From: a virus
Taxonomy: Duplodnaviria > Caudoviricetes
DNA length: 64,000 nt
IMG/VR virus record: IMGVR_UViG_3300010011_000004
Coordinates: 21,788-85,787 of that record
Reading direction: 5' to 3' (one strand)
Numbering within the stretch: the stretch's first letter is position 1; the number at the start of each line of letters is the position of its first letter. The position numbers were made by a program, and so were the translations under genes. Of the stretch, positions 32,863-47,790 are shown piece by piece. A model generated the notes under the pieces. It had not been told where the DNA came from. It did no database searches and saw nothing but the letters and a program-made list of their open reading frames with translations.

Positions 32863-32894
32863 AAAAAAAGAGGGAGATTAATCTCCCTCTTTTC
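32863..32894 (-). terminator. Terminator after the major capsid gene
   Basis: agagggagat-ta-atctccctct flanked by A/T runs. Confidence 0.75.
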
Positions 32895-32910: not shown

Positions 32911-34035
32911 TTAGATCGTGCCAGTTATATTCAGAACTCCGTAGTAGTCAGGACGTAGTACGCCTAACCAGTAACGGGTTCTAGCCATAACTGAAGGCAT
33001 TCCTTCAGAGTAGTAAATCGGGTGCAGCTGCACAGGAACATAAGGTGCGTACACTGCTCCAGTATCTTCAGGCTTGCTTCCTTTGAATCCAAGCAGAATC
33101 TGGTTGTCAGGGCACAGTGGCGAAGTGTATACTTTATAAACTCCGCTCAATGTTCCGATGTTGACTGTTCCGACATCCATTTGATCAGTCGGATTACCAT
33201 TTCCGCTGAAATTCATCAAGCTCTGGAAGATAGTAGCTGTTACAGGGCTGCATACCAGGTAAGTCGCTCCGGATACATGCGTTGCCTGGTATATAGTATT
33301 GCTCAGTTTGTTGATCTTCGGCATGATCGTCTCATACCATTGGTTGATACCGCGTGTCCAAGTCATAGGCATCGTAGCATCCCATGTATCAGATGTAGTA
33401 GCTTTGCTGAACAGCAAGTCGATGACTTCACTATCTATTTCTGTCGCGATGGTTGTCGTCAGATAATCGACCATTCTATCTTCAAAGTTTTCGCCGAATT
33501 CATTCTTATAGTCTTCCATAAGTTCGAAGCTGTAAGTAGCTCCAAGCTTACGGGTCTTAGCTTCGACAGCTACTTTGGTAATCTCAAATCTCATTGTGTT
33601 GTAGGTTTTACTAGTTCCAAACGGTATATTCTTCTCTATGTCTTTCTTATAGCTGAATCTTAGCTGCTTTTCAATAGGGCTACCGTTCAATTCTGTGACT
33701 GTGACAACGAAGTCTAAAGTTTTAGGATTTACAACACCGACGACTCTATAAGCACTAGTCAAAGAATTGACTACGCCATTCCTATCAACTTCGGCGATCT
33801 TAGTAAATGCCGTACCATTGGCTATTTCTATAAACAGAGTACCTTCAGAAGGTACGTTTGATAGAGTTCCAGTGAAGCTAGTAGCTGTATTTCCACTAGC
33901 ATTTGCTGCAGAGAGGATATCCTCTTCTACTGCGCTTTGAGGAGATGAATAAGCATTATCTCCTTCTTTCCAAGGATATATATTCTTAGTAGTTCCATTT
34001 ATACCTTCAACATAAGCATCCAGAAATCTGATCCA
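32911..34035 (-). CDS. Major capsid protein exon 2 (T4 gp23-like)
   Basis: AVEAKTRKLGATYSFELMED, IATEIDSEVI, LLGFKG, YAPYVP, TRY; spliced product 467 aa. Confidence 0.92.
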   Translation of the reverse strand, partial: WIRFLDAYVEGINGTTKNIYPWKEGDNAYSSPQSAVEEDILSAANASGNTATSFTGTLSNVPSEGTLFIEIANGTAFTKIAEVDRNGVVNSLTSAYRVVGVVNPKTLDFVVTVTELNGSPIEKQLRFSYKKDIEKNIPFGTSKTYNTMRFEITKVAVEAKTRKLGATYSFELMEDYKNEFGENFEDRMVDYLTTTIATEIDSEVIDLLFSKATTSDTWDATMPMTWTRGINQWYETIMPKINKLSNTIYQATHVSGATYLVCSPVTATIFQSLMNFSGNGNPTDQMDVGTVNIGTLSGVYKVYTSPLCPDNQILLGFKGSKPEDTGAVYAPYVPVQLHPIYYSEGMPSVMARTRYWLGVLRPDYYGVLNITGTI

Positions 34036-34317
34036 CACTTTATTCTATAGCTTTCGCTATAGAGTGGACTATATCTTCAGGTACTTTAAGTACCTGTCGG
34101 GCGCTCTAGGAAGTTTTATTGCCTGCGCTGGCTCAACTTCTAGTCTCTGAACCTTCTCCATACTTATTGCGCTTTCAGGAGCTTGGCTGCTGGTTATCCA
34201 TTGTTGCATCTCTCAATTTTTTAAACCATCAAGCCTGCCGTTTCCGGCTACTTTGTGGTATTGAGAGCTTTAGGAACTTCCAGCAATTCACCCGATTTTA
34301 TGCGAGCTAGATTAATA
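34036..34317 (-). mobile_element. Group I self-splicing intron (282 nt, no homing endonuclease) in the major capsid gene
   Basis: Core motifs AAUUGCUGGAA, CAGCAGCC, GUUCAGAGACUA, AAGAUAUAGUCC. P1 GCGGGU/GCUCGC with U.G at the splice site; P8 caggtac-ttaaa-gtacctg; P9 ctatagc-gaaa-gctatag; terminal G; splicing restores the frame. Confidence 0.92.
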
Positions 34318-34596
34318 ACCCGCAGGACCAGTTAATGGTTGTACAGAAAGAATTTGGTTAGCAATTAGACGAGGGAAAAGACGTCTGACCAATGGTATTA
34401 CTATCTTAGGCAGATAGACCATACTTTGCATTGTAGTATCAGCCAAAAGCGAGTTTCTGGTGTTAGCGAGAATTACCTTCATATTTTTATACAGTTGTTT
34501 ATCGTTAACTCCTGCAAGCAGTTGGCGTTCGACTTTAGGCCACACTCTTTCAGAAAGAAGAGCTGTATAATCTCTTTTATCCATTGTTTGTGTCAC
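34318..34596 (-). CDS. Major capsid protein exon 1 (93 codons)
   Basis: PLVRRLFPRLIANQILSVQPLTGPAG, a gp23-family N-terminal motif. Confidence 0.9.
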
Positions 34597-34630
34597 TCCT
34601 TGTTTATTATTAAAAGTTTAGATTATTTTT

Positions 34631-35713
34631 TTAATCTTCTTTAATACCTGCTATACGTAGGATTTCAGCACTCATTTCGTCAATTCCATCATATCGTCTG
34701 TCAGAAAGCAATGACGTATTACTGTTCTTTCCTGTCCTATTCAATACATTTCTTGGCTTGAGTTTAATATCGTCATCATTTTCATCAATGTTAATTTTAT
34801 TTTTGTATATATTTGCTAATATAGCTTTTTGTATTTTACCAATTTGCCTGGTTGCTTCTGCTATGACTTTTGGATTATCGGCATTGACTATAGTTGATAT
34901 GATTGCGGCGTATCTTTTGATAGCTTCTTTAGCCACATGTGGTGGTATATTTTTAGATTCAATTTTTTTATTTAGATCTTTAACGGCTTCAGACAACAAG
35001 GCATTAGCTTTCTTCAACTCAGATTCCATTTTCTTAGCCAACAAGTATTTAACACTTTGCTGCTGCAGATTCATCTTTTTGCTGGCTATAATAGAATCTT
35101 TTTCTTTAATCGTATCAACTAATTCTTTTACAGTATTTCTAGTTAAGTTCTCGCGAATCATTCCTAGCGCTAACTGTTTAGCCATTAGTCCATGCTCGAA
35201 TATTTCTTCAATTTTGTTTTTATATTTTTTTCTTAATGAACTCAATGACGCCTGAAATATTTCACTAGATTCATCTTCCGAAGAATCAGATTCATCTTCA
35301 GAAGAATCAAATTCATCCTCATCTTCAGATCCAAGTACTAATTCATTAAAAAATTCTTCTATAAGTCCCAAGACATTCGTAAGTTCAATTGAATCTAATA
35401 CTTCAGATTTTTCTTTACCATCTTTAGACATCTTAACATTATATTTATCATCATCTGTCTTTTCTATTTCAATATCAACTCCAAGAAAATTAAACTTTGG
35501 ATTTTCATCTACAGCCTTTTCTACCTCTTCCTCGATTTTGTCTTGTACGTCCTTCTCATCTTTCCCATCATTTTCGTTATTATTTTTATCGATTTCATCA
35601 GAATATATCAGATCATCGTCATCATACTTTTCATTTTCTTTTATTATTTTTTCGAAAGCTTCATCCACAGCTTTCTGCACAAGGCTTTTATCGATATTCA
35701 TAAATCTTCCCAC
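34631..35713 (-). CDS. Prohead scaffold/core protein (gp22-like)
   Basis: Acidic N-half and coiled coil; lies between protease and capsid genes. Confidence 0.6.
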   Translation of the reverse strand: MGRFMNIDKSLVQKAVDEAFEKIIKENEKYDDDDLIYSDEIDKNNNENDGKDEKDVQDKIEEEVEKAVDENPKFNFLGVDIEIEKTDDDKYNVKMSKDGKEKSEVLDSIELTNVLGLIEEFFNELVLGSEDEDEFDSSEDESDSSEDESSEIFQASLSSLRKKYKNKIEEIFEHGLMAKQLALGMIRENLTRNTVKELVDTIKEKDSIIASKKMNLQQQSVKYLLAKKMESELKKANALLSEAVKDLNKKIESKNIPPHVAKEAIKRYAAIISTIVNADNPKVIAEATRQIGKIQKAILANIYKNKINIDENDDDIKLKPRNVLNRTGKNSNTSLLSDRRYDGIDEMSAEILRIAGIKED

Positions 35714-35985: not shown

Positions 35986-36663
35986 TTAATTTTTAGTAGC
36001 TTTATAAATCTTTTTTACTGCAGCTATAATAGCTTCTGATAATAAATTTTTAAACTCTTCTTCGCTCATGATAATTTTTTTGTTTTTATAGTTATAATCT
36101 AGTTTATAAACAGAAGCCATTATCGATTTAACATACGCATCAGAATAAGCCGGATTATGTACGGCGTCATAAGTTATAAGAGTAAATTCATTAATTTTAT
36201 TTATTTCATCCATTCCATAACTGATATCTTGATCAGTAATAGCTCTTATAGAAACACCGGTTTTTATTCTGTCTTTTAATAGCGATGCCAATATTAAACC
36301 ATTAGGAGTATCTAATGTTTCAAATTTACCGACGACATAATTTCCATCCATTTCTAATTCAGTAATAAGATGTGATACATTTTTAAGCGAGATAGTAGCT
36401 ATTCTATTGACATCTTTAATGTTATCTGGATGGTCCAATTCTCCAAGAAGATGCCTGTTTTTTATACTTTCTTTAGCTTCGTTGATAGCCGCTGCTAACA
36501 CCCTTTTTGGAAAGATGTGGCCGTTAGCATTAGTATCGTCGCACTTTTGAAACACAGCTTCTGCTGTTACTTTATTGCAATTTTTAATATCAGAAGCTTC
36601 AATTATTTTATACTCTAACAAAGGATTAACGACTGATCTTATGAGATATTTATTTTTATACAT
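35986..36663 (-). CDS. Prohead protease (gp21-like)
   Basis: NANGHIFP, LGELDHP, SH, TPNG, GVSIRA, YDAVHNP. Confidence 0.9.
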   Translation of the reverse strand: MYKNKYLIRSVVNPLLEYKIIEASDIKNCNKVTAEAVFQKCDDTNANGHIFPKRVLAAAINEAKESIKNRHLLGELDHPDNIKDVNRIATISLKNVSHLITELEMDGNYVVGKFETLDTPNGLILASLLKDRIKTGVSIRAITDQDISYGMDEINKINEFTLITYDAVHNPAYSDAYVKSIMASVYKLDYNYKNKKIIMSEEEFKNLLSEAIIAAVKKIYKATKN

Positions 36664-38077: not shown

Positions 38078-39952
38078 TTACAATTCTTCCGGAACTTCTT
38101 CAGTTTCAGTTTCTTCGGTTTCTTCTTCACCAAATTCTATTTCGCCAAGAGGACCTTCAAGTGATTCTGATTCTACTTCTTCAGCGCCTTCTCCTAATTC
38201 TGTACCACCTAAACCTTCGCCTTCAAATCCGCCACCTAGACCACCGCCTAAACCACCACCTTCTAGCATGCCTTCTTCATTTAATTTTCCTGGTTCTTGT
38301 TCATTAAATATGATTAAATTCTTCTGTTGCTCTACCATATCTACCATATCTTCAATATCATCATCACTGAGCCCAACTATATTTTTTAACACCCACAATT
38401 TAGGAACATTAGGAAATGATTTCATAAATGAATCAGCCGTATTTAGTCGATTATAAATATTTTCTGTTCTTATATTATCTTCAATTGTTTTAGGTGCTGG
38501 TAAAGATAAAGTAACTTTGTTATAAAATTGTGGATTGTTTGTTAACAAGAAACACGCATTAACTAATTCATTTAATGCGTTATTAATATCCGTTTGATAC
38601 TTTCTTATCGTCCTGCTGAACTTTATATCTTCTAGAGTTAATAAAGCTCTTGTGCTAGCTGATTGTTCTTCAGCCAGATATGCTGGTGGAATTCCTAATG
38701 CAGCTATAAGTTTTTTCTTAAAATATTCGGCATCATTAATATAAGGAGATATATCTCCACTAGGAACTGGTTCAGCTTTGATTAGTGGCTGCCCATTGAT
38801 AGAAGGACTCCATATATCTTCTTCTAATGACATCATTTCAGGTATAGAATCTAGAGCTGTAGTACCATTGTTTTCTGGATCGATAACTCTTTGGCGTCTT
38901 ATTCTGTCCATTATTCCATTAATTAATGAAGGAATTTCTGATTCTGGAGTCGATCCAACTTCGATGTTCCATACTGTTCTTAATGGAGTACGAGTCGCTC
39001 GATAGATAGACAGTGCAGCTTCAACTAACAGCAATTGCTTAGCAATCGATCTTACTGGATCGAATAATGATGTACCGTAAGGATAATACATATTATTGTA
39101 ATAAACTGGAAATTTAACATATCTTCTAGGCGAAAGATATTTATATTTAGCTCCCTGATTCTTAAATAAATCTTCCATTAGTGCTTTAATCTGCATCTCA
39201 ATATGTCTTTCTTTATCGTCATCCATTCTGCGAATATCGCTTACTATTGAAATGAATTTATCTGGAACATCAATGTTTAACGTCGGATACGCATATGATA
39301 ACATATCTAACAATTTAGATGATTCAGCTTCTTGTTGAATTATAACTCCCAGTTCTATATCAGTTTTTTGGTCATAAAGTATAGTACAGTTCTTCGGCGT
39401 GTGTAATATATATCGTATACCTGATTCTGTTGTGTCTAATTCAACTATTGAATCTCCATAAAGAAGTGTAGTATATATTATCTGTGGCAATATATCAAAA
39501 AATTTACTTCTATTCAACATTACTCTACATAATGTTTTAGCGCTTTTGCTCAGCGGAGTATCATCACTTATATCAAATTGCATTTGGTTTTCTCTATCGC
39601 CGACATTAGGTGCTAATATGCTGTCGACGTAAACTTGCAAAGCTTGAGATGCTTCAGGTATTCTGTACAATATTTGTTCATATTCACTATAACGCGCTGC
39701 TCTTCCAACTTGCAGATCGAAGAATTTTTCGAATAATGACTGTCCAAATATATTGGATGATGTAACAGATTGCAATAGTTTTGAAAGCTCTTTTTGAGGT
39801 ATTAATTTGGATATATCTAGTTTCTTAGCAGAATCATCATATATCTGACTATCATACATCAATTTATTATATTGCTGTAAGTATTTGTTCAGTCTATCAC
39901 CTATATTTCCAAATAATGCGGCTTTATCTCTAGGCAATATTATCATCTCCAT
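38078..39952 (-). CDS. Portal protein (gp20-like)
   Basis: IYRATRTPLRTVWNIEVG, EEDIW, YFKKKLIAALGIP, EDIKFSRTI. Confidence 0.9.
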   Translation of the reverse strand: MEMIILPRDKAALFGNIGDRLNKYLQQYNKLMYDSQIYDDSAKKLDISKLIPQKELSKLLQSVTSSNIFGQSLFEKFFDLQVGRAARYSEYEQILYRIPEASQALQVYVDSILAPNVGDRENQMQFDISDDTPLSKSAKTLCRVMLNRSKFFDILPQIIYTTLLYGDSIVELDTTESGIRYILHTPKNCTILYDQKTDIELGVIIQQEAESSKLLDMLSYAYPTLNIDVPDKFISIVSDIRRMDDDKERHIEMQIKALMEDLFKNQGAKYKYLSPRRYVKFPVYYNNMYYPYGTSLFDPVRSIAKQLLLVEAALSIYRATRTPLRTVWNIEVGSTPESEIPSLINGIMDRIRRQRVIDPENNGTTALDSIPEMMSLEEDIWSPSINGQPLIKAEPVPSGDISPYINDAEYFKKKLIAALGIPPAYLAEEQSASTRALLTLEDIKFSRTIRKYQTDINNALNELVNACFLLTNNPQFYNKVTLSLPAPKTIEDNIRTENIYNRLNTADSFMKSFPNVPKLWVLKNIVGLSDDDIEDMVDMVEQQKNLIIFNEQEPGKLNEEGMLEGGGLGGGLGGGFEGEGLGGTELGEGAEEVESESLEGPLGEIEFGEEETEETETEEVPEEL

Positions 39953-47005: not shown

Positions 47006-47596
47006 TTGAAGTACAGAGCGTTCATAAATTTTACACATAACGGCGTAAAAATTAAAGGTGGAGAAGTATTTGATAGCGTCGAAGTAGGATTTACAACTGA
47101 AGATATTAATTTTCTTAAAGAACAAGGAAAAATAGAAACTGTTTCAATATTCGAAAAAAATAATCAGCCGGTGGTAGATAATTTAAGATATATATACACC
47201 AATGATATATCGACAGATTCTGGTTTTACAGTAGAAGAAAATAAAGTACCATTTGTCAGAGAAAGTATTCCAAATGTTTACACTCCTATTCCAGAAATCA
47301 ACTATCCACCTGAAGAGCCAGATGAGCCATTAGTTCAAGAAATAATTGATACAAGACCTGATTATATAGTAGAAATAAAAGAAGAACCTGAAGTTTTGCC
47401 TTGGGAAAAACCAGAAGAATCAGAGAATAAAAGCAGCTTTAAAGAGTCTGATTTAGCCAAAATGAATAAAACTGAATTAATTAAAATAGCTGAAAAGTTA
47501 AATATTAAGACAGAAGGAAAGACTAAAAAAGAATTAATATCTGATATTAGTCAACTACCCACCGTTTATAGAAGCGGAGGCTTGGAAAAGCCTTAG
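47006..47596 (+). CDS. Protein with a C-terminal Rho-N/HeH-like helical motif; native C-terminus displaced by the IscB element
   Basis: LAKMNKTELIKIAEKLNI..KTKKELI; the last 15 codons derive from the element. Confidence 0.65.
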   Translation: MKYRAFINFTHNGVKIKGGEVFDSVEVGFTTEDINFLKEQGKIETVSIFEKNNQPVVDNLRYIYTNDISTDSGFTVEENKVPFVRESIPNVYTPIPEINYPPEEPDEPLVQEIIDTRPDYIVEIKEEPEVLPWEKPEESENKSSFKESDLAKMNKTELIKIAEKLNIKTEGKTKKELISDISQLPTVYRSGGLEKP

Positions 47597-47790
47597 TTGA
47601 CTACCCTAAGTCTTAACTGACTACGTTGGAATAATTATCTTACCCTGAAATGGTGCCCAAGTTTCAGGCTCTAAGGTGGCTCTGTAAAAGTTCTGATGGG
47701 TAGGAACGGTCAACCACAATTGGCAGTTATACTGCAAAGTTATTCCAACATTGGGGATGGGCAAATAACTCCGAAAGGAGGGCTTATAGC
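47550..47790 (+). ncRNA. IscB omegaRNA (HEARO-like) scaffold
   Basis: gtcaactaccc...gttgactacc-ctaagt...gactacgtt...cccaagtttcagg-ctct...aacattggggatggg...aact layout upstream of a PLMP ORF. Confidence 0.8.

Follow-up and report, generated by a model that had tools for sequence, protein, structure and literature searches.

The window, that is, the whole stretch of 64,000 nt analyzed here, comes from an uncultured phage whose IMG/VR record of 85,787 bp has terminal repeats and a completeness rating of 100%. Its minus strand carries a late head-gene cluster made up of a portal gene, a protease gene, a scaffold-like ORF, and a gp23-type capsid gene in two pieces (Table 1). These two pieces are the only matches to the Gp23 family in the complete genome, which thus has one capsid gene, and the Gp23 profile (Pfam PF07068) is collinear across them, with profile positions 6 to 35 in exon 1 and 64 to 347 in exon 2. 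The 3' exon also matches T4 gp23 structures (8.5e-15), and residues 46 to 89 of exon 1 align to T4 gp23 residues 79 to 122, an alignment that is weak alone (E 0.2) and agrees with the Pfam match. The 5' exon comprises the propeptide and the beginning of the mature protein; the T4 gp23 propeptide is cleaved after residue 65, and the intron position lies downstream of the corresponding point. The hairpin that follows the capsid gene is a likely rho-independent terminator, and a consensus terminator scan does not list it.

Excision of the intron fuses the two exons in frame at GGT/TGG (the slash marks the exon junction), between Gly89 (GGU) and Trp90 (UGG). The site lies directly 3' of the conserved VQP(L/M)xGPxG and is preceded by a fuller motif, VRR..P.LIA..I.GVQP(M/L)..P.G; homing sites usually lie in highly conserved sequence. 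The more probable start codon is ATG 34584 (463 aa), not GTG 34596 (467 aa), because the G of the latter is the final G of the ribosome-binding site AAGGAG and because the capsid N termini of relatives read M(D/N/H)(K/R)DYTALLS. The spliced product of 463 aa compares with 461 to 471 aa in uninterrupted relatives. The original prediction had described a 282-nt insert after GPAG whose removal joins the reading frame to WIRFLDAY, and this stands, with Pfam Gp23 matches on both flanks of 34036-34317; its 467-aa spliced product and 94-aa unspliced stub shorten to 463 and 90 aa, respectively.

The insert is a group I intron by several lines of evidence. The covariance-model search that the original prediction had proposed returned Rfam RF00028 at 34045-34327 (minus strand) with 94.5 bits (gathering score, 50 bits) and an E value of 4.7e-23, covering model positions 1 to 253 of 253, and this is the only RF00028 match in the whole 85.8-kb genome. 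The intron begins with UAUUAAUCUAGCUCGC and ends with AAAGUG. Its minimum free energy is -84.2 kcal/mol versus -62.0 +/- 4.7 in 200 shuffles of its sequence, none of which was equally stable (z = -4.74), and the single-sequence fold already gives the P3-P9 layout. Core elements R (GGUUCAGAGACUA) and S (AAGAUAUAGUCC) agree with the Rfam consensus. P1 is formed by intron nucleotides 9 to 16 (UAGCUCGC), which pair with GCGGGU of the exon together with U1 and A2 of the intron; the guide sequence is AGCUCGC, and the splice-site U.G pair joins U34318 to G34307. P10 pairs intron nucleotides 6 to 10 (AUCUA) with UGGAU of the 3' exon. Between the two P7 strands lie the P7.1/7.2 hairpin (34110-34140), P3' (34097-34103), and P8 (34078-34096), and no P2 helix is found in this intron. 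The covarying hairpin at 34110-34140, between the P7 5' strand and P3', occupies the P7.1/P7.2 position of IA-type introns, and the nearest cores are those of phage IA2-type introns; the intron may accordingly be IA2-like. The predicted P/Q/R/S core is borne out by the full-length RF00028 match, the covariation described below, and the invariant P7, and the predicted P1 with its U.G pair, P10, and terminal G are all present.

A sense ORF of 46 aa lies within the intron (34069-34209, minus strand); it overlaps the P5-P8 core, lacks a ribosome-binding site, and as a gene is probably spurious.

Table 1. Features of the capsid locus and its surroundings (window positions)
Feature	Position	Strand	Basis or remark
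Portal	38078-39952	-	Head-gene cluster
Head-maturation protease	35986-36663	-	Head-gene cluster
Acidic scaffold-like ORF	34631-35713	-	Head-gene cluster
Ribosome-binding site AAGGAG	34596-34601	-	Read from sequence
Capsid 5' exon, 89 codons (MDKRDYTALLS...VQPLTGPAG)	34318..34584	-	Pfam Gp23 6.9e-07, phrog_138 3.2e-09
ORF-less group I intron, 282 nt, probable IA-type architecture with P7.1/P7.2, without P2	34036..34317	-	Rfam, fold, covariation
UAA stop in frame, two codons inside the intron (GGU/UAU UAA)	34312..34314	-	Read from sequence
Internal guide sequence	34302..34312	-	P1 and P10 pairing
P7 pseudoknot strands, GACUA (34141-34145) and UAGUC (34067-34071)	34067..34145	-	P7 invariant in 7/7
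P8 hairpin, CAGGUAC-UUAAA-GUACCUG	34078..34096	-	Relatives have a ~970-nt ORF insert in the loop
P9.0 (ACU/AGU before terminal G), P9 hairpin with GAAA loop, terminal G34036	34036..34066	-	Compensatory changes
Capsid 3' exon, 374 codons plus stop (WIRFLDAY...NITGTI*)	32911..34035	-	Pfam Gp23 4.1e-50, phrog_138 3.9e-43
Likely rho-independent terminator, AGAGGGAGA-TTAA-TCTCCCTCT plus T run	32863..32890	-	Read from sequence

To compare the states of this site, 17 related capsid loci (53 to 80% identity) were collected from IMG/VR and were examined by tblastn with the spliced protein and by Rfam scans. No insert is present at codon 89/90 in 11 of them (L002, L006 to L010, and L014 to L018); an ORF-less intron of 282 to 285 nt is shared by the window, L003, and L004; and an intron with an ORF, 1,233 to 1,243 nt long, is found in L005, L011, L012, and L013. 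Six related viral contigs thus hold a homologous intron at the identical GGT/TGG site, and in all seven introns an in-frame UAA falls within the first two intron codons. In the comparison with intron-less relatives, also proposed beforehand, the vacant allele L002 contains the predicted junction and is identical to the occupied L003 across 51 nt around it. The intron-bearing alleles all read NNGGGT/TGGAT and several vacant ones ACTGGT/TGGAT, which would pair more poorly with the guide sequence. The window falls in a subclade of the capsid tree, supported at 99/97, that mixes vacant (L002), ORF-less (window, L003, and L004), and ORF-bearing (L005) alleles; some forks of the tree are weakly supported (84 to 91). 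Among the compared loci, no relative encodes the two capsid parts as separate genes except by way of the intron. In public metagenome contigs, the exact 30-mer of the ligated junction has 0 matches, and degenerate versions of the junction matched nothing but the intron-less DNA allele L002/L139.

Five database capsid proteins (P0003, P0005, P0006, P0008, and P0013; 337 to 405 aa) begin 17 to 21 residues before GGT/TGG and continue through the junction; their alleles seem to carry the upstream intron only. Gene callers split the capsid gene, and many of the clade's database proteins of 375 to 405 aa are exon-only calls. In diversity surveys based on g23, introns just after VQPMxGPxG would presumably also make amplicons longer or disrupt primer sites.

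Does the RNA structure persist across these lineages? The window's intron and its six same-site homologs were aligned, with the long insert removed before RNAalifold; the sole long gap in the alignment is the P8 loop. The consensus contains P1, P3, P4, P5, P5a, P5b, P6, P7.1/7.2, P8, P9.0, and P9. By pair count over the seven introns, about 30 base pairs are changed on both sides, with only two or three cells broken. Covariation extends to two exon-guide pairs of P1 (GC/AU and CG/UA), and compensatory changes occur in all three P9.0 pairs, in six of seven P9 pairs, and also in P7.1/7.2 and P8. The splice-site U.G pair and P7 are invariant in all seven introns, and P10 is kept in six. These compensatory changes, including those at exon-guide pairs, are strong evidence that each lineage is under selection for base pairing and hence for splicing; the covariation between exon and guide sequence means that the ribozyme keeps pace with its host gene.

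The P8 loop is also where the introns of L005, L011, L012, and L013 carry their ORF, of 259 to 279 aa. A zinc finger of the pattern CxxC...HxxxH lies at its N terminus and matches Ros/MucR and C2H2 weakly, and its C terminus has a PD...ExK motif that matches Pfam Phage_endo_I (1e-6 to 1e-8) and, in the PDB, T7 endonuclease I (4e-4). This ORF is a putative homing endonuclease combining a zinc finger with a T7-endonuclease-I-like PD-ExK nuclease. Between L005 and L013 the ORFs are 59% identical and the capsid 3' exons 64%, and because of these similar values the ORF has probably been resident with the intron since the two subclades separated. In L011 (2120-2937), the ORF of the site-89 intron is broken into overlapping ORFs of 141 and 137 aa and looks like a frameshifted, decaying endonuclease gene. 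As predicted, the window's intron has no endonuclease ORF, its P8 being a plain hairpin; no homolog of the relatives' ORF occurs elsewhere in the window genome at E <= 1, and no endonuclease gene adjoins the capsid gene in the window.

Further introns were observed in the same genes. L013 (316-1700) and L012 (319-1665) have a second capsid intron, after codon 69 and codon 58, respectively. That of L013 contains a 308-aa zinc-finger and PD-ExK-like ORF (713-1639) that is 28% identical to the site-89 ORF, which suggests paralogous endonucleases in adjacent sites. In L005 (1058-3000), three introns interrupt one capsid gene, the first two flanking a micro-exon of ~29 nt and the third being the carrier of the endonuclease ORF.

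Together, these comparisons indicate that the insert is very probably a functional, ORF-less ribozyme intron in the sole gp23-family gene of the phage, descended from an endonuclease-bearing mobile intron. The group I splicing pathway is established, and the pre-mRNA would accordingly fold into P1-P9; an external guanosine held in P7 would attack 3' of the U in the U.G pair of P1, the terminal G and the 3' exon would be positioned by P10 and P9.0, and exon ligation would yield the 463-aa capsid precursor. Since the genome has no other Gp23-family gene, the phage must rely on splicing to make its capsid. Ribosomes would be freed ahead of the ribozyme core by the in-frame UAA, which lies two codons inside the intron; in-frame intron stops have been viewed as keeping ribosomes off the folding ribozyme (PMC3984707).

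Another question is how the intron came to lack an ORF. The simplest reading of the sequences is a classical homing cycle, in which an old endonuclease-bearing intron underwent deletions of its ORF and, in addition, precise losses of the whole intron. The ancestor would have been a mobile intron with the homing endonuclease in its P8 loop, and later deletion of the ORF would have left the window's intron as the endonuclease-less stage of the cycle, retained because selection favors splicing, on which the capsid depends. The direction of change, ORF loss versus gain, is inferred from seven sequences and one tree.

It is unlikely, though far from negligible, that the ORF-less form is instead ancestral and its P8 loop was invaded later by an ORF, or that the window's intron is still mobile in trans during co-infection. 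One subclade does hold both ORF-less and ORF-bearing introns; by established homing logic an occupied allele, having no intact target, is usable as a repair donor, and cases are documented in which ORF-less introns home in collaboration with endonucleases encoded separately (review PMC3984707). Against this, both subclades have the ORF at one and the same place in the P8 loop, and the divergence of the ORF is about that of the capsid exons (59% versus 64%), which fits one old acquisition followed by losses; the window genome, moreover, offers neither an ORF homolog nor an endonuclease gene flanking the capsid gene. The original prediction had left a choice between an intron mobilized in trans and a relic. 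Because four relatives keep an ORF in the P8 loop and the window genome has no homolog of it, the balance leans to the relic: most likely, this is an intron that has lost its homing endonuclease and still splices. A tentative extension is that the first 90 codons of the gp23-type capsid clade may be a battleground for an uncharacterized homing-endonuclease architecture, a Ros/MucR-like zinc finger fused to a T7-endonuclease-I-like PD-ExK nuclease, with three or more occupied sites (those following codons 58, 69, and 89 among them), and that the window's intron is possibly kept also as a removal of the target site. If so, it would shield the sole capsid gene of the phage from the endonucleases of relatives during co-infection.

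Could slow or conditional splicing serve as a regulatory gate on capsid production, as the original prediction had inferred? With a sole capsid gene, capsid yield cannot exceed what spliced mRNA allows, and a stop just inside the intron couples translation to folding (a general idea; PMC3984707). Such a gate is nonetheless improbable, since the sequence contains no sensor domain and no covarying alternative helices, close relatives without the intron imply that the life cycle can do without it, and efficient splicing is reported for the capsid intron of LittleE (PMC3706429). That the intron is dead for splicing, so that the capsid gene is broken and the phage defective, or that the two pieces are made as separate proteins, is scarcely credible. 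Metagenome assemblies can include defective genomes, but this one is rated complete and has terminal repeats, all core helices are intact, and the compensatory changes point to continuing selection on pairing. As for separate proteins, no compared relative has the two parts as separate genes except through the intron, and the GTG at 34038, which would start a 375-aa protein, lacks a ribosome-binding site and falls within the final bases of the intron's 3' end, and uninterrupted homologs exist; we rejected this start. Translational bypassing or a split capsid protein was also rejected, given the full ribozyme and its covariation. The clade forms a natural series (vacant site, endonuclease-bearing intron, decaying endonuclease in L011, and ORF-less intron) that is useful for study of the homing cycle; it leaves knowledge of phage introns unchanged.

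The ribozyme itself has a wide distribution. A 20-mer spanning P3-J3/4-P4 (AAAATCGGGTGAATTGCTGG) occurs in at least 119 IMG/VR viral contigs (loci L020 to L138), with about 8 of the matches listed in the capsid clade; because these contigs lie mostly outside the clade, the ribozyme is part of a very large family of phage introns. No close DNA relatives were found among cultured phages, the only matches being 85- to 150-nt stretches of ribozyme core, and protein matches to them are at most 37% identical. The nearest cultured cores belong to introns in DNA polymerase genes of Herelleviridae (SPO1/Bastille/SIOphi type) and in helicase genes of PhiPA3 and Bacillus phage WH1, with 73 to 81% identity over 85 to 150 nt of P3-P7. 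These IA2-type introns appear to share with the window's the P7.1/P7.2 insert between P7 and P3', whereas their host genes are replication genes and their endonucleases belong to other families (HNH in the classic cases).

Two observations lie outside the capsid clade or gene. In an unrelated viral contig (L103:4127-4842, minus strand), two paralogous ORFs of ~190 aa have between them two group I introns in tandem (80 and 68 bits); one of the introns shares 77% identity with that of the window over 208 nt, a likeness which suggests that the same ribozyme family is also present in another gene. The plus strand of the window carries a full-length Rfam HEARO (RF02033, IscB-associated RNA) at 47550-47769, with 136 bits versus a cutoff of 83.

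The original prediction had regarded an intron in a capsid gene as unusual, on the grounds that phage group I introns are mostly described in genes of DNA metabolism. That overstated the case: other phages with a group I intron in a capsid gene are already on record, and this one is not new in kind. Precedents are Tuc2009 and LittleE (PMC3706429, the former through a citation there), crAss-like phages (PMC10136315), and, by the annotation of its GenBank record, Bacillus phage SP-15. Lactococcal phage Tuc2009 has a capsid-gene intron as cited in PMC3706429, and for LittleE splicing was demonstrated by reverse transcription-PCR and N-terminal sequencing across the junction (PMC3706429). Both resemble the window in having a group I-type intron in the major capsid gene of a tailed phage, but they are siphoviruses with an HK97-type capsid, whereas the window's is of the gp23 (T4) type. 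The LittleE intron is 819 bp long with an HNH endonuclease on the opposite strand, in contrast to the ORF-less intron of the window and the PD-ExK ORF of its relatives. PMC10136315 describes group I introns in capsid genes of crAss-like phages (groups Delta and Zeta), with as many as three in a single gene. As in the present clade, capsid genes of uncultured phages are intron hot spots there, and L005 likewise has three; the crAss-like phages, however, represent another phage order and capsid lineage, and the window has one intron only.

The closest parallel within the same capsid family is SP-15 (KT624200: 25479-27996; L019), whose gp23-like capsid gene is deposited with two joined exons that flank a Phage_endo_I "putative endonuclease"; our literature search found no paper describing this intron. 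The SP-15 endonuclease is 27% identical to the L013 ORF over 99% of the latter (E 4e-12), and a subthreshold group I match of 38 bits lies just upstream of the ORF (L019:2678-3049). SP-15 thus shares with the window's clade the capsid family and, with the relatives, the type of intervening ORF. It differs in the insertion site, roughly codon 240 in SP-15 versus codon 89 in the window, and in that its intron carries the ORF, whereas the window's does not.
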